Virus record (IMG/VR): IMGVR_UViG_2579778804_000005
DNA: 7,355 nucleotides
Strand: one strand, 5' to 3'
From: a virus
Taxonomy: Duplodnaviria; Heunggongvirae; Uroviricota; Caudoviricetes
Shown: positions 9 through 7,274 of the stretch, piece after piece
Layout: every line of letters starts with the position of its first letter
Numbering within the stretch: the first letter of the stretch is position 1
Translations under genes and position numbers: made by a program
The notes under the pieces: model-generated
Seen by the model: only the letters and a program-made list of their open reading frames with translations
Databases searched by the model: none
What the model was told of the DNA's origin: nothing

Positions 9-1838
9 TTACCCGCCGTTGGATTGTCCTGATAAGCTGGTTAATGTTAATGATTTCAAGAAGCTATCCCGACTTGCTCTCGCTGTAAAATCCACATAAT
101 CGCTTAATCTGGATGTGTCAGAATTAATAGTAAGAGGAACCTCTGTTACCACTTCAAATGTAGGATTCAGATTAAACACAGGAGATAAATTATAAGCCGG
201 AGTTGTCATTGCAAGATTATTTAAAGCACCCTGTTTGAGATTGGTTATCGGTGCTTCGCTGACTGACATTTTTACATCTGACACAGAAGATTTATCATCG
301 AAAAGCAATCCCTTAATCGTATTAAATAGAGAATGACTATTATCAGGTGTAGTTGTTGCAGTGCCAGCGCCTTTATATTGATCAGGAACGAGATTAGAAA
401 GATTCTGTTTCATTCCTTCATTGCTTAATGGCGGTGCATCTCCCATATTTTTCTGAATAGCTTCCGTCTTATCATCATTACGATTAAACCAGTTTACAAT
501 CTTCATAATAGCTTCAAAGAGACTTCCTGTAGCTTCTCCCAGCTTCGTAAAATACGGAGTGAGATTAGAAAGGTTTTTCATAAACTCTTCCGTTACTTTT
601 GGATCGAGAGATTTCATAAAGCCGTCTACGAATGCTACTTGTCTTGCATCAGAAAGCTGTGAAAGCTGTCTGTTTAGTTCTCTGAATTTAACAATAGAGT
701 CTTGCTGTGTTTCTGTTAGCCATTTTCCAGAGGCTTTTTGCTGATTAATACTTTCTTGTACATCTTTAACGGAACGTTGCCAATATTTTGATGTAAGCAT
801 CAAATCATCGCCCAGGTCTTCTAAACGTTGTCCAATTTGGGAGTCTGAAAACCCTTTTTTCATCATTCCATTAACAGCCTTAGAAATTAATCCAGCCGGA
901 TTATCAGCAAATTTTTTAAGGTCGCTTTTGTTAATAACACCGATGTTTAGAAGTTCATTAATAGCGTTATCACCGCCTTTCCATTCAGATTTTCCTTTCT
1001 TGTCTTTCACCAATTCAGCTTCACTGTAAGATTTTGCGGCACGTTCCCTAACATCTTTCATCTGATCCAGGTATTTCCTAGCCCCTTGATCACCCTGGAG
1101 GCTATCGATCCCGTGTCTATAGGCCCATTCTGTAAGGTTGTACATCTGGTTAACGTCTACACCGCCAAGCCTTGCACGTTGAATTAATTCTCCTTGTGTC
1201 TCTGCGTTAGCGAAGCTATTAGCCATAAATTCAGCGGTTTTGCTTACAGCCATCACGCCAGCAGCAGCCGTAGCGCCTCCAAATAACAGAGCGCCCATAG
1301 TGGCGGAATTCCCTGATCCTCCTCCCTTAACGGGGGCTAATTGAGCTTTTCTGTTGCCATTAATCTTACGTTGTTGTTGTTGTAGGCGTTTCATCTGGCT
1401 ATTCATACGTGCAAGCGAGATAGCCCCTTGCTCATATTGTTTTGCTATCTCTCTAGCCTGTGCAATAGCTTTGTATTGTTCCGCTACAGAGAGGCGGTGC
1501 ATTGCACTGATAGAGCTTGACACATCAAGGAGTTTTAATTCTGCTTTCTCTTTACGTGCTGCTATTTGTTGCTGTTGCCTTGCCTGTGCTCTTGCTGCGG
1601 CAGCTTGTGCTCTTTGATTCTGTTTTTCTGTTTTGGCTTTCTGTTGAGCAATCTTATCTACTTCACTTTGTGCTTTCTTATAGCCTTTAGTGACATTATC
1701 AAATCTTAATTTAGCTGGCTTGATATTTTCTGCGAATTCCTTTAAGCCTGTAATAGAGTCTTTCGCTTTTTTCAAGCTGTCTTTATCTACACTAAATGTT
1801 ACTGTGTTCTTAATTTTAGAAGTGTTAATTTCTAACAT
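9..1838 (-). CDS. Large virion-associated protein (609 aa) with a Q/A/R/K-rich coiled-coil-like segment and a Gly/Ala-rich hydrophobic segment; possibly tape-measure-like or an internal/ejection protein
   Basis: Complete ORF: ATG at 1838-1836, TAA at 11-9, AGGGGA ribosome-binding site upstream. The protein has a low-complexity stretch (QNQRAQAAAARAQARQQQQIAARKEKAELK) followed by GGGSGNSATMGALLFGGATAAAGVMAV. It is the longest gene and lies downstream of the capsid gene. Being a real gene is well supported; the function is inferred from composition and position only. Confidence 0.5.
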   Translation of the reverse strand: MLEINTSKIKNTVTFSVDKDSLKKAKDSITGLKEFAENIKPAKLRFDNVTKGYKKAQSEVDKIAQQKAKTEKQNQRAQAAAARAQARQQQQIAARKEKAELKLLDVSSSISAMHRLSVAEQYKAIAQAREIAKQYEQGAISLARMNSQMKRLQQQQRKINGNRKAQLAPVKGGGSGNSATMGALLFGGATAAAGVMAVSKTAEFMANSFANAETQGELIQRARLGGVDVNQMYNLTEWAYRHGIDSLQGDQGARKYLDQMKDVRERAAKSYSEAELVKDKKGKSEWKGGDNAINELLNIGVINKSDLKKFADNPAGLISKAVNGMMKKGFSDSQIGQRLEDLGDDLMLTSKYWQRSVKDVQESINQQKASGKWLTETQQDSIVKFRELNRQLSQLSDARQVAFVDGFMKSLDPKVTEEFMKNLSNLTPYFTKLGEATGSLFEAIMKIVNWFNRNDDKTEAIQKNMGDAPPLSNEGMKQNLSNLVPDQYKGAGTATTTPDNSHSLFNTIKGLLFDDKSSVSDVKMSVSEAPITNLKQGALNNLAMTTPAYNLSPVFNLNPTFEVVTEVPLTINSDTSRLSDYVDFTARASRDSFLKSLTLTSLSGQSNGG

Positions 1839-1852
1839 TTAAAATCCCCTTA

Positions 1853-2056
1853 TTAATCATTTTTACCACCTTCTTTACTTAAGAAATGGTGTAGAGCCTG
1901 ATCAATACTCTCGTTTAGTCTGAACATACGGGCTTTTACTCCTTCATATGGAACATCTAGGAGAGAACATAGATATTTCAGATTTAACAATCCTCTAGAA
2001 TCATTAGCATCTAAATGTACGTGTACACCATTTTTTGATTTCAAAATCACTTCCAT
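1853..2056 (-). CDS. Hypothetical small protein (67 aa)
   Basis: ATG at 2056-2054 preceded by a GAGGTGA ribosome-binding site; TAA at 1855-1853, 14 nt before the next gene's ATG. Same strand and tight spacing as its neighbours. No recognisable motif. Confidence 0.55.
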   Translation of the reverse strand: MEVILKSKNGVHVHLDANDSRGLLNLKYLCSLLDVPYEGVKARMFRLNESIDQALHHFLSKEGGKND

Positions 2057-2079
2057 ATTTTAATCACCTCTCAAAATTT

Positions 2080-2123
2080 AAAAATAAATAAAAAAAAGGC
2101 GAAGCGTGAATACACGCCACGCC
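2080..2123 (-). terminator. Rho-independent terminator immediately after the capsid gene
   Basis: Hairpin at 2098-2123 (ggcgaagcgtgaatacacgccacgcc): inner 5-bp stem gcgtg/cacgc with a 4-nt loop, outer ggcg/cgcc stem across a 2-nt internal loop. On the minus strand it is followed by a long U-run (plus-strand A-run 2080-2097). It starts about 20 nt past the capsid stop codon (2145-2143). Confidence 0.6.
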
Positions 2124-2142
2124 TCTAATACACGTTAAAATA

Positions 2143-3171
2143 TTATTTCACAGTGATTTGAACGGAGAAGCCAACGCCGTGGTTTACAACCATCTGGCTA
2201 TTCTCTGTAACAACGTTAACAGCATCACCACGAGAAGATTCATAGCTATAGCTGTACACCTCAGCAGGAGCGGTATTAATCAGTTCAAAGGTGCTGGAAG
2301 CAGCCCCGTAGATGTTCTGATATACATTAGAGCCTTTAGCAAACTTCGGAACCGCTACAGCGTCTGCGGTCATATGTGCAAGGTGTAGCGGATCTACCAG
2401 TTTAATAACATCAATGTTAGTTCCTGGAATAGTGAACGCTGTCACCCCTGGCAGCAGGTCACGACGCTGATACACAACGTTCCCTTCTTCCAGTGGGCTT
2501 ACATACTGGAATGCGTTTGCCATACCCGCAGAGAATCGAATTGCAGAGAAGGCTTCCGGCTTACAGAAAACAACAATACGCTCTACAGCAGCCGCCTGGC
2601 TTTGTGCTTTCTCGATAATGTCAGTAGCAATCTGATCAAATTCTTTAAAAATCTTCGTGGTGTCAGTGCTGGAAGCGTTCACAGTGGCTTTCATAGCTGA
2701 TACGTTAAACAGCTTGCCCCACTCGATAAGAACATCGTCAGTTTTCGGGGTATGTGTCTTGCCAGAGAACAAAGAAGCCGCCAACACGCTCTCTTTTGTA
2801 CGCTGATACGCTACGTGATGTTTAGCAACATAGTCAGCATAAATATCAGTGAGTGTTTCCTGAAAATCAGTGCCAGGCTTACGCTTGCCTTGCACGTCCT
2901 GCGGTTTGATCAGGTCTTCCCTTAAAAAGTACGGGATTTCGACCAGCCATTCTTTACCTTGTTCTCGCTTAGTAACATTGTGTTCAGAAGAGAAACGAGA
3001 GGTTTCTTTGTTGAACAGAGATTCGTTAGTTTCCACCAGTTGGCTAACAGCTACTTTATGAGAACTAACGCCCACCGGATCAGTGAAGTCGAGAGTAGAA
3101 AGCAGATAGTTTCTAGTGCTATGCGCAGAGAACAAAGGAGCTAAATCAACGTAATCATTACCTAGAATCAT
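2143..3171 (-). CDS. Major capsid protein (342 aa), HK97 fold, resembling the T7 gp10 family
   Basis: Complete ORF: ATG at 3171-3169, TAA at 2145-2143, followed by an intrinsic terminator. By recall, ERIVVFCKPEAFSAI...MANAFQY...PLEEG resembles T7 gp10A DRVFYCDPDSYSAIL...MPNAANY...DPEKG, and PKFAKGSNV resembles FPANKGEGNV. Length matches gp10A (~345 aa). This is a recalled comparison, not a computed alignment. Confidence 0.62.
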   Translation of the reverse strand: MILGNDYVDLAPLFSAHSTRNYLLSTLDFTDPVGVSSHKVAVSQLVETNESLFNKETSRFSSEHNVTKREQGKEWLVEIPYFLREDLIKPQDVQGKRKPGTDFQETLTDIYADYVAKHHVAYQRTKESVLAASLFSGKTHTPKTDDVLIEWGKLFNVSAMKATVNASSTDTTKIFKEFDQIATDIIEKAQSQAAAVERIVVFCKPEAFSAIRFSAGMANAFQYVSPLEEGNVVYQRRDLLPGVTAFTIPGTNIDVIKLVDPLHLAHMTADAVAVPKFAKGSNVYQNIYGAASSTFELINTAPAEVYSYSYESSRGDAVNVVTENSQMVVNHGVGFSVQITVK

Positions 3172-3189: not shown

Positions 3190-3552
3190 TTAAGAAGTGA
3201 AAACAGAATGGAACCCTTCAAGCTGGAAGCCTTTTTTAATTAATGCTGTTTTTGCTGCTTCACTTACAGCATTCAGGGCATCAGCTTTAATGCACACAAG
3301 GCCAGCATTGCTACGTAGCACATCTACAGGCTTGTTTTCTCCTGCCGTTACAAATTCACTCATAACAACATAGATATCATCTCCTGATTCATATTTAGCG
3401 CCCGTGCTTGTGATCAAGTCGCCACACTCAACATCAGCAGGAAGAGAAGCAAAAACCTTGCTTTCTACAGAGGCAAACGGATCAGTACAATAACTTACAA
3501 TATCTGTGAAAGTCTTTCTAACTGGAAACAGAGTGTCTAAATCAATAATCAT
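3190..3552 (-). CDS. Hypothetical capsid-module protein (120 aa); possibly a scaffold, decoration or assembly factor
   Basis: ATG at 3552-3550 with an AAGGAGA ribosome-binding site 7 nt upstream. The start overlaps the upstream gene's stop as ATGA (3552-3549), indicating translational coupling. TAA at 3192-3190, 18 nt before the capsid ATG. Function is guessed from position only. Confidence 0.55.
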   Translation of the reverse strand: MIIDLDTLFPVRKTFTDIVSYCTDPFASVESKVFASLPADVECGDLITSTGAKYESGDDIYVVMSEFVTAGENKPVDVLRSNAGLVCIKADALNAVSEAAKTALIKKGFQLEGFHSVFTS

Positions 3553-3761
3553 TTAGTAATCTCCTTAGCTTTTAATTTGATTAGTTCATTAAGGGAAGGT
3601 GTAGACGGAGAAGAAGGAGAAAAATATTTTTCAACACATCTTTCCACTTCCTCTACAGAACACCCAGCGTATTTAGCTACCATTTCGGTAATTTGTGGAT
3701 TAATTTTCAGCATTTCATCTCGATACTTGATGATTTGCTCTTTATCATTTAAGAACAACAT
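3549..3761 (-). CDS. Small protein (70 aa) with a helix-turn-helix-like segment; possibly DNA-binding
   Basis: ATG at 3761-3759; the TGA stop overlaps the next gene's ATG. The segment QITEMVAKYAGCSVEEVERCVEKY has HTH-like periodicity. It is the first gene after a 344-bp intergenic region containing an operator-like inverted repeat. The exact start codon is uncertain. Confidence 0.5.
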   Translation of the reverse strand: MLFLNDKEQIIKYRDEMLKINPQITEMVAKYAGCSVEEVERCVEKYFSPSSPSTPSLNELIKLKAKEITK

Positions 3762-3828
3762 TTATATAAACCTTGTTACCTTGTTTAAAGTAAGAAATAC
3801 AACTTTTAAGTTGCATAACGGGCAAAAT

Positions 3829-3855
3829 AAAAGGCAGCATTTAGAGCCGCCTTTT
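3829..3855 (-). terminator. Weak hairpin, possible terminator between the upstream operon and the structural operon
   Basis: aaaaggc (3829-3835) pairs with gcctttt (3849-3855) around a 13-nt loop. Flanked by A-rich and T-rich runs, so it could act in either direction. Only three G/C pairs in the stem. Confidence 0.25.
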
Positions 3856-3883
3856 ATTAACTTGTACCTATGTAATTACCCTA

Positions 3884-3915
3884 TGTTATGCATACTCCAA
3901 GATGTATGCATAACA
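3884..3915. promoter_or_regulatory. Perfect 12-bp inverted repeat (operator-like) upstream of the structural genes
   Basis: tgttatgcatac (3884-3895) and gtatgcataaca (3904-3915) are exact reverse complements separated by an 8-bp spacer (tccaagat). A third copy of the TGCATAAC core lies at 3812-3819. All sit in the intergenic region upstream, in transcription sense, of the ATG at 3761. Confidence 0.45.
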
Positions 3916-4105
3916 AAGGAAAAAAGAGGTAATAATGACACTTAAGGAGGAGGAGAAGCGGGGAGCGGAGATTTTACTCCCCTTTAATGACAGGAAGAAT
4001 TTTTAATATCGAACCAACAAAGGAAAAATAATCACCCCTATATAATTATATTAACATACAATATATGAAATGTCAAGATATTTTACAACTTTTTTGTTGC
4101 TTTTT

Positions 4106-4441
4106 TTATTCTTCTGTGATAGCGCCTAAGCGTTGCGCTAGTTCAACAAGTCCGTCTCCTACATAGCGAATATCAGATTCAATATCTTCTATCCAGTTTG
4201 ATAACTCCCATATCTGATCCGCTGTCAGGTATGCGTTCTCACGCTTACAGAGCATCTCTACACGCTTAGAGAGGTGTTCAAAGGCACACACAGCTAAATC
4301 CCAGTGTTTAAACGCCTCATTTAGTGCCGCTGGCGTGTTTTCTTTGTATGCTTCAAGTTCAGCGCGGTTTAAAGGCAGGAGGTAATCATCCTCATAATAA
4401 TTAATTAGTGAGTAAATTGTATCATACGTGTTTTTGTTCAT
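4106..4441 (-). CDS. Hypothetical protein (111 aa after start revision)
   Basis: The ORF track starts this gene at 4468, but that ATG and the next one (4456) have no ribosome-binding site and overlap the upstream gene. The ATG at 4441-4439 has a GGAGA site 8 nt upstream and sits 1 nt after the upstream TAA (4445-4443). TAA at 4108-4106. Confidence 0.55.
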   Translation of the reverse strand: MNKNTYDTIYSLINYYEDDYLLPLNRAELEAYKENTPAALNEAFKHWDLAVCAFEHLSKRVEMLCKRENAYLTADQIWELSNWIEDIESDIRYVGDGLVELAQRLGAITEE

Positions 4442-4442
4442 A

Positions 4443-4850
4443 TTAAAAGTCTCCATAGTGATCTGCATTATCTAAATGGAATTCAGGAACTAAATTATTT
4501 AGGCCATTGGTGGCGAGATAACCAACGTAGTGATTATAATCTTCAAATCCTAAAATCTGGTATTTGCGTAAATCAGAGCTATCAACAATATACTCTTTTC
4601 TTTTTCTAGGTTTCCAGAATACGCCAGGTGTTGAAGATAAGATTTCTTGCAAGGCGTTAAATTCATCTCCACAAGGCACAGAGGGAGAATGTTCTATGAT
4701 CTCTGTTTTCCATTCGCCAGGGGCGCTATTTTGCTTGGTGAGCGTAACTAGCTCTTTAAAGTCTTTGCGTCTTAGAATAGATTTAGGTTTACTTAGAAGA
4801 GAAGCTGAATCACCGATCTTCTTAACAACGTTGTTTTTTCTTTTTGCCAT
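4443..4850 (-). CDS. Hypothetical protein (135 aa) with a basic N-terminus (MAKRKNNVVKK)
   Basis: ATG at 4850-4848 with an AAGGAAA-type ribosome-binding site; TAA at 4445-4443. Co-directional with and tightly joined to the downstream gene. No confident family assignment. Confidence 0.55.
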   Translation of the reverse strand: MAKRKNNVVKKIGDSASLLSKPKSILRRKDFKELVTLTKQNSAPGEWKTEIIEHSPSVPCGDEFNALQEILSSTPGVFWKPRKRKEYIVDSSDLRKYQILGFEDYNHYVGYLATNGLNNLVPEFHLDNADHYGDF

Positions 4851-4982
4851 TATTTACTTTTCCTTTTCTTTTAAAGGAAAACACCCCGAAGTATGTTTCT
4901 AACGTGAGAAAGAACAATAACCAATACATAGCTACTATCATAATAATGTTTTCCTTTTATATTTTAATTACATAGAGAGATT

Positions 4983-5258
4983 TTAGAGAGTGGAATAGAT
5001 GAATTCTACTTTATCCAGTCTTTTGAGATTGAATGTAGAGAAAGATAATTCTTTAATCTCTATAACACCGAAATTTGATAGCTGTCTAAGCCAGAATTTT
5101 AAACCATCTTCAGAGCAAGCTGCTCGATGTAACACATCGCTATATTTTAGCGGTGTTGGCTTTCCTTTATAGAGGTAAGCAAGTGTTTCGTAGATGCGTT
5201 TTCCTGTGTCATTACACTGAATTCTGTCTACTTGATTTTTTACTAAATATTGAATCAT
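4983..5258 (-). CDS. Hypothetical protein (91 aa)
   Basis: ATG at 5258-5256 with a strong AAGGAGG ribosome-binding site that overlaps the stop codon of the upstream replication-initiator-like gene, suggesting coupled expression. TAA at 4985-4983. Confidence 0.55.
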   Translation of the reverse strand: MIQYLVKNQVDRIQCNDTGKRIYETLAYLYKGKPTPLKYSDVLHRAACSEDGLKFWLRQLSNFGVIEIKELSFSTFNLKRLDKVEFIYSTL

Positions 5259-5269
5259 AACCCTCCTTA

Positions 5270-5923
5270 TTAAAATGGAATATCAAAGTCATCATACACA
5301 TTTGGGTAATGCTTAGAAAAATATGCCTCAATACCATTTGGTAGCTTTAACCTGTGCTTATAGGCTAACGATGTTGCAAATTCTATAAAGGATGCTCCTG
5401 CTGTTCTGGTGTTTTTCTGCTGGCAGATAAGAGAGGCAAAATTCTCTAACACATCCTCCTCATTATCATTAGCTACCTTTTCATTTGATGAAACAGGTGT
5501 TTCTTCCGTCTCCCACGGCAAAGGCGCATCCCAATCATCAAGAACATCAAAAGAAGACTCTTTATTATCTTCTGTAGGGGGAAGCTGTTCAGGAACAGCT
5601 TTAACGGTAGCTTCTTGTTGTGTTTTGGCTTCTTGTCTAGCTTCTTCTTGTGGAATATCTACCACTTGATAGACATTAGAACTTCCTGGTCGTGCATCTT
5701 TTATAATTAATCCCATTTCGAGCAATTTCTTAACCCTTTCCTCTGCTGCTCTTGGTGTTATGCCAAAAACATCGCCTATCTTAGCGTAAGAGGGAAATGC
5801 ACGATCAAACCCTTTCAGATAGCAGTAAAGGTTTTTAGCACTATCTGTAAATTTATGCCCGTTTACTTGGCTTATTTTTAGAATCCACATAGGAACTTTT
5901 ACAAATTGTTCTTCATTAATCAT
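5270..5923 (-). CDS. Replication-initiator / replisome-organiser-like protein (217 aa): N-terminal winged-HTH, acidic linker, C-terminal DDFDIPF tail
   Basis: ATG at 5923-5921 with an AAGGAGA ribosome-binding site. The N-terminus (VPMWILKIS...YAKIGDVFGITPRAAEERVKKLLEMGLI) is typical of HTH replication-initiator and phage replisome-organiser N-domains. The middle is acidic and Pro/Glu-rich. The last residues NVYDDFDIPF were checked codon by codon at 5302-5273, with TAA at 5272-5270. Confidence 0.6.
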   Translation of the reverse strand: MINEEQFVKVPMWILKISQVNGHKFTDSAKNLYCYLKGFDRAFPSYAKIGDVFGITPRAAEERVKKLLEMGLIIKDARPGSSNVYQVVDIPQEEARQEAKTQQEATVKAVPEQLPPTEDNKESSFDVLDDWDAPLPWETEETPVSSNEKVANDNEEDVLENFASLICQQKNTRTAGASFIEFATSLAYKHRLKLPNGIEAYFSKHYPNVYDDFDIPF

Positions 5924-5974
5924 TAAAAATCTCCTTATAAATCACGCTTAATGCGCTACTAAAGTGAATGAGGA

Positions 5975-6142
5975 TCACTTACCCTTTTTTTGTTTGATGT
6001 TCTCTGCTGCTTCAGTAATGATTTCTAACATCAAATCACTGACCATAATTTGCCTTTTCTTGGCTTCAGCAAATAAAACCTTGAAGATTTCAGGGTCAAC
6101 GTGTAGGTAAGTACGCGGAATTGGTTTCTTGGTTTCGCTCAT
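5975..6142 (-). CDS. Ribbon-helix-helix (CopG/Arc/MetJ-type) DNA-binding protein, 55 aa, absent from the ORF track
   Basis: Manual translation: ATG at 6142-6140 with an AAGGAGA ribosome-binding site, TGA at 5977-5975. Product MSETKKPIPRTYLHVDPEIFKVLFAEAKKRQIMVSDLMLEIITEAAENIKQKKGK shows the classic strand-helix-helix pattern (TYLHVDPEIF... then ...SDLMLEII). It lies 19 nt after the 62-aa gene and 51 nt before the replication gene. Confidence 0.6.
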   Translation of the reverse strand: MSETKKPIPRTYLHVDPEIFKVLFAEAKKRQIMVSDLMLEIITEAAENIKQKKGK

Positions 6143-6161
6143 AGTTTTCTCCTTCTATTCT

Positions 6162-6350
6162 TTACTCTGTTTCAGATTCTTTTTCATTTTTTCTTAGTTC
6201 ATCAATAATCTTGAGTGCTTCATTGAAGCAAGCTGCTCGCTCTGGATAACCTCGACTCCTTGCCATATTACGATTCATTACTACTTGATGGCGTGTAAGC
6301 TCACCTTTTTTAAATGCCTCCACGACGTGTTCTGATGTAAACCATTTCAT
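6162..6350 (-). CDS. Hypothetical small protein (62 aa), first gene of the regulatory/replication operon
   Basis: ATG at 6350-6348 with an AAGGAG ribosome-binding site 6 nt upstream; TAA at 6164-6162. It lies downstream of a predicted sigma70-type promoter. Basic/acidic composition, no confident motif. Confidence 0.5.
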   Translation of the reverse strand: MKWFTSEHVVEAFKKGELTRHQVVMNRNMARSRGYPERAACFNEALKIIDELRKNEKESETE

Positions 6351-6460
6351 AAAAAACTCCTTATTCAGTTAAAAGAAAAACACCTTGCAAGCCTGACGGC
6401 TTCAAAGTGCATTGATTTTGATTATTTAGAGAAGAATGTTTTTCTGTCCCTCTAATACCT

Positions 6461-6489
6461 ATTATTACATATAAAGAAACATTTGTCAA
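6461..6489 (-). promoter_or_regulatory. Sigma70/SigA-type promoter with an extended -10, reading toward the 62-aa, RHH and replication genes
   Basis: On the minus strand: TTGACA (-35, plus 6489-6484), a 17-nt spacer, then TGtAATAAT (extended -10, plus 6469-6461). The predicted transcript start is about 100 nt upstream of the ATG at 6350. Confidence 0.45.
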
Positions 6490-6581
6490 TACCTTTTCAC
6501 AAAAAATCTGATCTTTTTCATGCACTTACATTTTTTCTTAGCTATTCGTGCTCTTCTGTGTAGTGCTATTCTTCATTATTG

Positions 6582-6610
6582 TCTAAAACGCTCTAAAACG
6601 CGTTCTAACG
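6582..6610. repeat. Tandem direct repeats (iteron-like): two perfect TCTAAAACG copies at 10-bp period plus a degenerate third
   Basis: tctaaaacg at 6582-6590 and 6592-6600, then ttctaacg at 6603-6610. The junction forms the palindrome aacgcgtt (6597-6604). Located in non-coding DNA upstream of the promoter. Confidence 0.5.
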
Positions 6611-7015
6611 AGATTTTGATAAAAGCAATACATTCCCTTATCTAATGGCTGTTTAGCTCGCCAGAGGCTTATTTAAGGGGCTTATTTTGTATTTGTTAGG
6701 TATATGAAAAGGTAATGGCAGATATAAGATAGAGAGTCACTTTATAAAACGTTCTGTAAAGCCCTGTAGTGAGATTATATATGTAGGCAATGCGTTTCCA
6801 TTCCCTACCCTGCTTAATGCTGTTAGAGAAGCATTTAGACCCCTTATTTTTAATTAATTAAAGTATCCTCTGTACCTTGTGTTATGAAACACCTCTGAAT
6901 CCTTCATAAAACACATTATGACGCAAAGAACACTTTTCTAAGGTGATTCCCTTCCTGAATGCTGTTTCTTGCGTCAGAGAGCTACACAGAGCTTATAAAG
7001 CTATTATTAATAATA

Positions 7016-7117: not shown

Positions 7118-7274
7118 AATTACACGACTACAGAAGTAGGAAGTGGAATTGTATTGAGGCTTAGTGAAATTACACGAGGAAAGCAGAGTGTAATTGAGCT
7201 TTAGCCGCTCTCTCTTCGAGTAATTACACAACTACAGAGAATAACGAGAGTTATTAAATGTAGGAAGTGGAATT
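7118..7274. repeat. Cluster of AATTACAC sites (three direct, one inverted) and a perfect 15-bp direct repeat
   Basis: AATTACAC at 7118-7125, 7168-7175 and 7222-7229; inverted copy GTGTAATT at 7188-7195. GTAGGAAGTGGAATT occurs at 7136-7150 and 7260-7274. The two long units (7118-7150, 7222-7274) differ by a ~20-bp insertion that contains a small ataac/gttat inverted repeat. Confidence 0.5.

Follow-up and report, generated by a model that had tools for sequence, protein, structure and literature searches.

An Escherichia coli island with its own capsid shell and tail-core genes is probably a PLE-like satellite of phi92-type phages

Introduction

What is a viral capsid gene doing in a bacterial chromosome with so few other virion genes for company? 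The question is raised by IMG/VR record IMGVR_UViG_2579778804_000005 (Caudoviricetes), a stretch of 7,355 nt referred to here as the window, in which an open reading frame (ORF) at positions 2143-3171 was initially annotated as a T7-gp10-like capsid protein in a small plasmid-like element. Here we report that this ORF encodes a major capsid protein (MCP) with the HK97 fold and that the window lies within a 12.3-kb chromosomal island of Escherichia coli, which also carries genes for a candidate cement protein, a tape measure protein (TMP), a tube initiator and a replication initiator (Rep). The MCP, TMP and tube initiator are related to those of phage phi92, and a few phages of the same type encode proteins in which N-terminal domains of the island's Rep alleles are joined to a nuclease-like domain. 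Together, these observations suggest that the island is a satellite of Stephanstirmvirinae-type phages, resembling the PLEs of Vibrio, and we regard this reading as probable.

Results

The capsid gene encodes an HK97-fold protein of the lambda gpE family

The ORF occupies exactly positions 2143-3171, as initially called, and encodes 342 aa on the minus strand, as do all of the long ORFs in the window. In a Pfam search the protein matched PF03864 (Phage_cap_E) with 52 bits (E 7e-14, profile positions 14-329 of 329), compared with a curated cut-off of 22.9 bits, and it matched PHROG 29 (major head protein) with an E value of 6e-15. A phmmer search of PDB sequences, for which the threshold was E <= 10, returned the capsid of the Pakpunavirus P7-1 (9zbi, 1e-10) and gp124 of phi92 (5e-7, full length). 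Using tblastn against 50,697 phage records, we detected the MCPs of phi92/phAPEC8-type coliphages and of ~95-kb Pseudomonas myoviruses, all at just 22-26% identity; the MCP of phage phiWec188 is 23% identical to the island protein across its full length (E 6e-11).

Predicted structure gave the same picture as the profiles. An AlphaFold2 model of the MCP (27 homologues as input, mean pLDDT 75.8) had 274 Foldseek matches in the PDB at E <= 0.001, with phage HK97-fold capsids and encapsulins in the top ranks. The best match was the MCP of phage ICP1 (8g1r, E 8e-18, TM-score 0.70), followed by PhiTE, Bas63, Sf14, YSD1, Chi and lambda (7vi9, 4e-9). PF03864 was also found in all of the homologues of the MCP. 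The capsid call is therefore fully confirmed by profile and by fold: the product is an HK97-fold MCP of the lambda gpE/Phage_cap_E family, and its nearest relatives are found in large lytic myoviruses (Pakpunavirus, phi92 and ICP1). Taken alone, the protein is an ordinary newcomer to PF03864. The unusual part is its genomic company.

Two further observations concern the gene itself. Its G+C content is 42-48% (window 2001-3000 region), compared with 33-39% over most of the island, and the G+C content is also raised, to 44-48%, at window 1001-1750 inside the TMP gene. An insertion sequence (IS) of the IS3 family (IS600/IS3) splits the MCP gene in at least two strains, H24 and H43, where the pieces are annotated as two "major capsid protein" fragments, and strains H47 and H51 have an IS3-family element inside the island match.

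The gene lies in an integrated island with an incomplete virion set

The window is 100% identical to part of the chromosome of E. coli 89-3156 (positions 8001-15355 of the locus from that strain, L001). Matches were found in 721 of 5,426 complete E. coli genomes (~13%), 280 of them near full length; NC101, MRE162 and BEN2908 are further strains with the island. The island in 89-3156 extends from a tyrosine integrase gene to the tRNA-Thr gene beside proA and is defined as a 12.3-kb unit by 20-bp direct repeats (ATGGTGCCGATAATAGGAGT) at both ends, located at L001 5741 and 18019, the latter being the 3' end of the tRNA-Thr gene. Starting at the integrase, the gene order is a Dit-like tail protein (PF21821, the tube initiator), the 609-aa TMP, a 67-aa ORF, the MCP, a 120-aa ORF, a 70-aa ORF and a promoter region, followed by three small ORFs, a 217-aa Rep with a helix-turn-helix (HTH) domain, two small ORFs, a second promoter and a gene-poor arm.

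There is no further ORF of more than 127 aa in the island and hence no portal, terminase, protease, sheath or tube gene, none of which was detectable among the island proteins using Pfam, PHROG and ORF sizes. The recognisable virion set is thus limited to the cement candidate, MCP, TMP and tube initiator, an incomplete set that, judged from the gene content, would require a helper. Ten island proteins searched against defence-system models (PADLOC) and NCBIfam gave no match, a search of the whole island with Rfam found the tRNA alone, and comparison of the right arm with phages gave tRNA matches only. A plasmid or a complete small phage was also considered and rejected, given that blastn of the whole window against phages and plasmids returned only short patches and that the window is chromosomal.

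The virion genes form two short pieces of a phi92-type module

The phi92 group (Stephanstirmvirinae) comprises lytic myoviruses with genomes of 146-152 kb. In the phi92 structure, the cement protein is gp123, which forms a beta-tulip trimer, the MCP is gp124 (T=13), and the TMP and tube initiator are gp134 and gp135 (PMC13450770). The island TMP could be aligned end to end with that of phiWec188 (651 aa) at 27% identity (E 1e-57), and the termini were far better kept than the middle, with the first ~41 and last ~42 residues ~66-71% identical. At the DNA level, the first ~30 codons are 86% identical to TMP genes of Justusliebigvirus. The 134 phage records matching the TMP by tblastn were all listed only in the ~145-152-kb genomes of the phi92-type group. 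The island protein is 42-50 residues shorter than the phage TMP, from which an only slightly shorter tail would be expected. The Dit-like protein matched Phi92_gp135 with an E value of 1e-78 and is 50% identical to the product of the phiWec188 gene located immediately after the TMP gene. We conclude from these sequence comparisons that the island MCP, TMP and tube initiator are homologous to phi92 gp124, gp134 and gp135 but have diverged (identities to phage versions ~23%, 27% and 50%), and that a phi92-type virion module is represented in the island by two short pieces, one comprising the cement candidate and the MCP and the other the TMP and the tube initiator. A hairpin followed by a T-run is placed after the MCP gene in phiWec188, by our reading of its sequence, as it is in the island (Table 1). 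The 67-aa protein encoded between the MCP and TMP genes has no sequence similarity to the product of the phage gene upstream of the TMP gene.

The assignment of the 120-aa protein, encoded immediately upstream of the MCP, comes from its predicted structure. For the AlphaFold2 model (pLDDT 72), the top three PDB matches in Foldseek were small decoration chains of Bas63 and Sf14 (probability 0.99-1.0, E 6e-3 to 2e-2, TM-score ~0.5, 117 aligned columns), and these were the only matches with a probability near 1. In the Sf14 capsid, the asymmetric unit contains nine gp34 chains and as many copies of gp33, a beta-tulip decoration protein whose gene is just upstream of that of the MCP (PMC11821841); because of this composition we take the ~124-aa chains O and P to be gp33. 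The 120-aa gene accompanies the MCP gene in all of the related islands. The protein had no Pfam match and no sequence relative was found for it in phages, including the product of the gene upstream of the phiWec188 MCP gene (the gp123 position). On the strength of the model, we consider the 120-aa protein a candidate cement protein.

The island has a putative replication module of its own

Rep is encoded in the same orientation as the virion genes of the window and behaves as an allele-swapping module, with several allele classes present within E. coli. A dense array of iterons was found 1.6 kb upstream of rep, at L001 15565-15980, which is 210-625 bp past the right end of the window and in the gene-poor arm. 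The array consists of a 23-bp repeat (TAACAGAATTCTGTGGGGGTGTC) in 6-7 copies, a 22-bp repeat (TAGTTCACAGTGACCTACCCCC) in three copies, a 35-bp unit (TTCCTAGG...) in 2-3 copies and an 18-bp unit in 2.6 copies. In islands that have another Rep allele, a different set is amplified, for example 4.9 copies of set 2 in locus L016 and 2.8 copies of set 3 in L019, such that the iteron sets co-vary with the Rep allele. In addition, an indel between two islands that are 96% identical maps to the iteron region. We read the array as a composite origin of replication and propose that, with Rep, it gives the island its own replication module.

Some phages of the phi92 type carry putative nucleases with captured Rep domains

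Window positions 5570-6154 showed 86-98% DNA identity to a handful of phi92/phAPEC8-type phages. In phage Mt1B1_P17, the first 119 residues of a 328-aa protein (L011 1866-2852) are 83% identical to the Rep of the window. Residues 1-105 of this protein are 99% identical to the Rep N-terminus of two island variants (L026/L027), and residues 112-210, which make up a second HTH domain, are 85-88% identical to the Rep N-terminus of a different allele class (L019/L023). The C-terminal ~100 residues match the MUG113/T5orf172 domain of the GIY-YIG superfamily and are 35-47% identical to proteins of T5-like and other phages whose genes carry the annotation of homing endonuclease or GIY-YIG nuclease. 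The proteins of muut (L003 2371-3369) and Mt1B1_P17, of 328-332 aa, both contain a tandem pair of HTH_36 domains, and each domain shares 65-99% identity with the Rep N-terminus of a different island allele. Versions of the chimeric protein are carried by muut, inny and BI-EHEC, and the full-length form was found in six phage records only. The isolation host of Mt1B1_P17 was not among the 60 of 507 matches listed.

The 55-aa gene upstream of rep is 100% conserved at the amino-acid level in most E. coli islands, and in muut (L003 3421-3588) and inny a gene with 95-98% DNA identity to it lies directly upstream of the chimeric nuclease gene. For the phage ICP1, Odn is a T5orf172 nuclease whose N-terminus copies the DNA-binding domain of the PLE RepA and which cuts the PLE origin (PMC8263062). 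The presence of Rep domains in the phage nucleases, together with the 55-aa gene in muut and inny, thus provides strong circumstantial evidence that the island replicates during infection by these phages and harms them.

The morphogenesis core is conserved across enterobacteria

Nei-Gojobori comparisons with other island copies gave dN/dS values of 0.10-0.17 (MCP), 0.14-0.24 (TMP) and 0.02-0.19 (120-aa protein); purifying selection acts on the MCP, at a dN/dS of ~0.1. Members of the MCP family are 38-98% identical, always ~342-345 aa long and chromosomal, and were found in Escherichia, Citrobacter, Klebsiella, Enterobacter, Cronobacter, Serratia, Kluyvera, Buttiauxella and Scandinavium, among others. 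In Klebsiella and Serratia, the core consists of proteins of ~70 aa and ~120 aa, the MCP, a ~63-aa protein and a ~620-aa TMP, and then the integrase. Across the 34 loci compared, the morphogenesis core is retained; Rep and the integrase are exchanged as modules, and some of the loci lack the tube initiator. In a search for terminase and portal functions among the small ORFs, their diverged homologues from Klebsiella and Serratia gave only sub-threshold HTH-type matches (e.g., PF10668, E 0.028), on which we do not rely; the Klebsiella homologue of the 67-aa protein likewise had sub-threshold HTH matches. One 9.4-kb contig labelled as a Bacillota metagenome-assembled genome (JAEWTL010000083.1, L048) encodes an MCP 73% identical to that of the window and is probably a binning contaminant from an Escherichia island.

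The island is probably a satellite of Stephanstirmvirinae-type phages

We favour the reading that the island is a PLE-like satellite of Stephanstirmvirinae-type phages, which we judge rather more probable than all else. In the mechanism that we propose, infection by the phage would induce the island to excise via its own integrase and to replicate from the iterons with its own Rep. The capsid operon would be expressed from the near-consensus sigma-70 promoter at 4076-4048, with the putative intrinsic terminator at 2125-2101 behind the MCP gene, as in the phage. The island MCP and cement protein may then build a small shell on the helper portal, which the helper terminase would fill, and the filled shell could be joined to chimeric tails nucleated on the island TMP and tube initiator. 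The phage would supply the portal, terminase, tube, sheath, baseplate and fibres, the resulting particles would transfer the island, and the phage yield would probably be reduced in the process. Small capsids of known size are made for P4, SaPI and PLE satellites. By analogy with these sizes, a shell for ~12 kb of DNA is expected to be T=4 or smaller, compared with T=13 for the helper.

The capsid operon leader may be relevant here. It comprises ~290 nt (window 3762-4047) between the promoter and the first gene and contains a 16-nt palindrome (3880-3895 / 3904-3919, 94% complementary) as well as hairpin-like G+C-rich segments. The leader could be a site of helper-dependent control.

Several observations weigh against the satellite reading or parts of it. 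No free or circular copies were found in IMG/VR, where the loci were all inside contigs of 20-76 kb; most of these have IMG isolate-genome identifiers and we take them to be prophage predictions. A 12.3-kb metagenome scaffold with a homologue proved to be an integrated copy. The exact junction predicted for an excised island, ...GATTTTCTTG-ATGGTGCCGATAATAGGAGT-AAAACACTCGAT..., was absent from viral and metagenome contigs, an absence that says nothing either way. No small terminase or pac function was recognisable using Pfam, PHROG, defence models and NCBIfam, and five conserved small proteins were without an assignment after the family searches. The MCP is only 23% identical to that of the presumed helper, which bears on the use of the helper portal, scaffold and protease, and its gene is broken by IS elements in some strains. 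For the chimeric phage proteins, the nuclease domain scored 21.2-22.5 bits in Pfam, at or just below the threshold of 22.3. Finally, the cement call reflects a modest structural match (E 6e-3, TM-score 0.5), and a profile of the 120-aa protein, searched against PDB sequences at E <= 10, picked up neither capsid nor decoration proteins.

A fuller proposal is that the island belongs to a so far undescribed satellite family that is widespread in enterobacteria, has large lytic myoviruses (Stephanstirmvirinae) as helpers and would swap both the capsid shell (MCP and cement) and the tail core (TMP and tube initiator), unlike any characterised satellite, and be countered by bivalent origin-directed nucleases, making it the E. 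coli counterpart of the arms race between PLE and ICP1 in Vibrio. For this combination of claims we consider the case evenly balanced. With a shell and a tail core of its own and a presumed lytic helper, the island seems to add a variation to the known kinds of satellite; we found no description of satellites tied to phi92, phAPEC8, Stephanstirmvirinae, rV5 or thrW, or of satellites encoding both an MCP and a TMP, in a literature search whose coverage was incomplete.

Defence without packaging is the main alternative

The island might instead serve defence only. The diverged MCP, TMP and tube initiator would then be dominant-negative decoys, spoiling the assembly of heads and tails by infecting phi92/phAPEC8-type phages and protecting the population without packaging of the island. 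This would fit the retention of the ends that make contacts (the TMP termini and the 50%-identical tube initiator) while the rest diverged, the lack of a recognisable packaging function and the lack of any sign of free or packaged island DNA in IMG/VR or metagenome collections. Interference with tail assembly is also a known defence strategy, exemplified by the Rta protein of PLE11 and by the Tai systems (PMC11364771). On the other hand, an integrase, intact att sites and a Rep with an iteron origin and fast allele turnover are the kit of an element that excises and amplifies, strong purifying selection on the cement candidate and MCP pair fits the building of a shell better than poisoning, and no PADLOC model was matched. 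Moreover, known satellites combine both activities, such that this alternative is partly contained in the satellite reading and partly compatible with it. We consider defence alone unlikely, and the main rival nonetheless.

An inert remnant of a decayed prophage with functionless structural genes is very improbable. The virion gene set is fragmentary, ~2 kb of the right arm is without annotated genes and the MCP gene is interrupted by IS elements in a few strains, as a remnant would predict. However, the related phages were isolated as lytic, with genomes of 146-152 kb, and we know of no prophage form of them, which makes a decaying prophage an unlikely source. In addition, all of the core genes have a dN/dS of ~0.1-0.2, many genera share the compact gene set, with its ORFs at full length and 38-98% identical, the island has intact att sites and phages bear nucleases aimed at the specificity of the island Rep. 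The island is not a decaying prophage.

Even less probable is a capsid-forming PICI (cf-PICI), which would build complete heads and steal only tails. The island shares with these elements an MCP of its own (10.1101/2022.09.08.507074), and it is likewise an integrase-bearing island in Enterobacteriaceae. The same source states that cf-PICIs encode all of the proteins for capsid formation and packaging, whereas the island is without a portal, protease, head-tail connector and terminase and has no room for them. Also unlike what is known of cf-PICIs are its TMP and its tube initiator, both with homologues in a lytic myovirus.

The resemblance to T7 gp10A is marginal

The initial annotation was prompted by four blocks resembling T7 gp10A, and these exist: the window protein has VVFCKPEAFSAI, MANAFQY, PLEEGN and FAKGSNV, and authentic T7 gp10A (NC_001604) has VFYCDPDSYSAI, MPNAANY, DPEKG and ANKGEGNV. 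In a pairwise BLASTP comparison, the first three blocks merged in one 35-aa segment (query 200-232, T7 206-239) with 37% identity and an E value of 0.002, and the fourth block, KG(S/E)NV, was left unaligned, as was the rest of the length. The Smith-Waterman score of 57 (z = 4.0) was equalled by one of 500 shuffles. In an alignment of 27 family members, conservation in the MCP family was limited to the skeleton R-h-h-h-F ... [FY][SN]..R ... A..Y ... N[VI], and the T7-looking C, P, SAI and N occurred in the E. coli allele only. The sequence likeness to T7 thus goes marginally beyond chance and is in part coincidence.

Membership of the T7 Gp10A-like family was rejected by BLASTP, the Smith-Waterman shuffles, Pfam, PDB phmmer and Foldseek. 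T7 gp10A matched PF21703 (Gp10A-like) with 384 bits (E 6.5e-115), and this profile had no match to the window protein at E <= 1. No T7 chain was returned by the phmmer search of the PDB at E <= 10, and the T7 capsid (3j7w) was 41st in the Foldseek ranking, with a TM-score of 0.43 and an E value of 3e-7. Compared with the T7 locus, no gp9 scaffold, T7 RNA polymerase or T7 promoters were found around the MCP gene. The two proteins therefore share the HK97 fold and one alignable stretch of 35 residues; they differ in the profile match, in a much lower fold score and in genome context. The least probable of all the readings is that of a capsid gene of the T7 gp10 family caught in a small plasmid-like replicon, since, for all that the local match spans three of the four blocks and T7 is a distant fold relative, the profile is not matched, the T7-like residues are not conserved across the island family and the element is chromosomally integrated rather than a plasmid.

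Of the initial reading, then, the capsid function stands and the T7 family does not. The initial annotation was right that the context is not that of T7 (the neighbours are the cement candidate, TMP, Rep and integrase, with no T7 genes) and that an HTH replication initiator is present, which matched PHROG 270/391 and HTH_36. The small plasmid-like element was a sound guess insofar as the context is replicon-like and non-phage; the plasmid itself gave way to a 12.3-kb island that is integrated in the chromosome at tRNA-Thr and has att repeats, an integrase, a Rep of its own and a putative origin. A ribbon-helix-helix regulator had been proposed for the 55-aa gene at 5975-6142, for which we found no supporting family match.

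Other features of the island and of its insertion site

Features of the window are listed in Table 1. The segment at window 5921-6727, which contains the 55-aa and 62-aa genes and the promoter of the early operon, is 90% identical to a 166-kb conjugative-type E. coli plasmid (NZ_CP126938.1), where it lies under three hypothetical genes. A 19-bp repeat (AATTACACGACTACAGAAG) occurs three times in non-coding DNA at window 7118-7240, upstream of the early promoter, with spacings of 50 and 54 bp. Farther to the right, the ~2 kb between the iterons and the tRNA gene (L001 16000-18000) has one annotated gene of 52 aa and neither an Rfam nor a phage match, and is ~95.6% identical between two islands, near the level of the coding part.

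Several elements have accumulated in tandem at the tRNA-Thr site. In strain MRE162, a second integrase with a CbtA/YeeU toxin-antitoxin element adjoins the island (L004 16970-21357), and in strain Res13-Lact-PEB08-01 a P4-like element (psu, ogr/delta) with a reverse transcriptase does so (L005 1-4575).

Table 1. Features of the 7,355-nt window, with window coordinates
Feature	Position	Strand	Remarks
TMP homologue, 609 aa, phi92 gp134-like	9..1838	minus	phrog_16051, E 2e-52; Phi92_gp134, E 2e-37
Conserved 67-aa protein between MCP and TMP	1853..2056	minus	In nearly all related islands; faint HTH-type hints only
Intrinsic-terminator-like hairpin and T-run	2101..2125	minus	Directly after the MCP gene
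MCP	2143..3171	minus	342 aa; HK97 fold; Pfam Phage_cap_E (lambda gpE-like); distant phi92 gp124 homologue
120-aa protein, candidate beta-tulip cement/decoration protein	3190..3552	minus	Immediately upstream of the MCP gene; position of lambda gpD, phi92 gp123 and Sf14 gp33
Conserved 70-aa protein, first gene of the capsid operon	3549..3761	minus	No family match
Near-consensus sigma-70 promoter, TTGACA-17-TAATAT with TG	4048..4076	minus	Heads the p70-cement-MCP-TMP operon; consensus match only
Small conserved genes: 120 aa (4106-4468), 135 aa (4443-4850), 91 aa (4983-5258)	4106..5258	minus	Kept in most of the island family; no significant family match
Replication initiator Rep, 217 aa, N-terminal winged-helix/HTH_36	5270..5923	minus	PHROG 270/391, E 9e-11; HTH_36
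55-aa gene	5975..6142	minus	Upstream of rep; no Pfam match
62-aa first gene of the early operon	6162..6350	minus	ORF call
Near-consensus sigma-70 promoter (11/12, TG), early/replication operon	6461..6489	minus	Consensus match only

Discussion

Significance

Phage resistance and gene transfer are shaped by phage satellites, and most of the known ones that depend on strictly lytic phages come from Vibrio (PLE, PICMI). Phages of the phi92/phAPEC8 type are components of therapeutic cocktails for encapsulated and avian-pathogenic E. coli. If the satellite reading is correct, an island with matches in ~13% of complete E. coli genomes would be a hidden determinant of phage host range and yield, and it would offer a tractable model in phages compatible with E. 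coli K-12. Small capsids are otherwise obtained with external or internal scaffolds, as for P4, SaPI and PLE, or with a whole head module, as for cf-PICIs. Shell proteins of the island's own on a borrowed portal and motor would constitute a third route, and the assembly of chimeric tails would extend beyond PLE. The nucleases with two captured Rep domains would be a clear and datable record of an arms race, as well as a ready tool for mapping island origins.

Comparison with known systems

The island MCP has in common with other lambda gpE/PF03864 MCPs a match over the whole profile and the HK97 fold; unlike in phages with MCPs of this type, the gene has no portal, protease or terminase gene around it. 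The order of cement candidate then MCP gene would correspond to that of lambda (D-E), phi92 (gp123-gp124) and Sf14 (gp33-gp34), although the island cement candidate resembles the phage proteins in its model only and not in sequence.

Among satellites, a P4-like element was rejected since no match to Sid, Psu, Delta or the alpha primase-helicase was found in the island proteins using Pfam and PHROG. The cf-PICIs and the Streptomyces satellites MiniFlayer and MulchMansion have capsid proteins of their own rather than a mere remodelling of the helper capsid, as does the island. These elements are described as having a complete head and packaging set with tails unchanged, whereas the island has shell proteins only and a tail core that would be replaced.

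The closest parallels are with PLE, a small integrated island that likewise faces a large lytic myovirus. The MCP of the PLE helper ICP1 (8g1r) is the best fold match to the island MCP and belongs to the same structural clade. PLE also has its own initiator and an iteron origin with several specificity alleles (PMC8263062), as the island appears to have. PLEs encode TAC, TMP and baseplate hub (BhuB) proteins that are 20-41% identical to those of ICP1 and are built into chimeric tails on which satellite transfer depends (PMC11838301). The island, known from its genes alone, similarly encodes a TMP and a baseplate-proximal tail protein, and across the two systems these proteins are 20-50% identical to the phage versions. 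The differences set the island apart from PLE by description, and membership of that group was rejected: PLE has a RepA_N initiator, a Vibrio host and another helper lineage, and the island an HTH_36/phage-O-like Rep and enterobacterial hosts. PLE has no MCP and reshapes that of ICP1 with the external scaffold TcaP (8g1r title; PMC11838301), whereas the island has its own MCP and a cement candidate.

The parallel extends to the phage side, where both ICP1 and the coliphages have a T5orf172 nuclease fused to the DNA-binding domain of a satellite initiator. As with Odn, the coliphage proteins, known from their sequences, combine a T5orf172/GIY-YIG C-terminus with captured initiator sequence and are sporadic among similar phages. 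Odn has one captured domain, with 42% identity, whereas the coliphage proteins have two in tandem, taken from two Rep alleles, with 85-99% identity.

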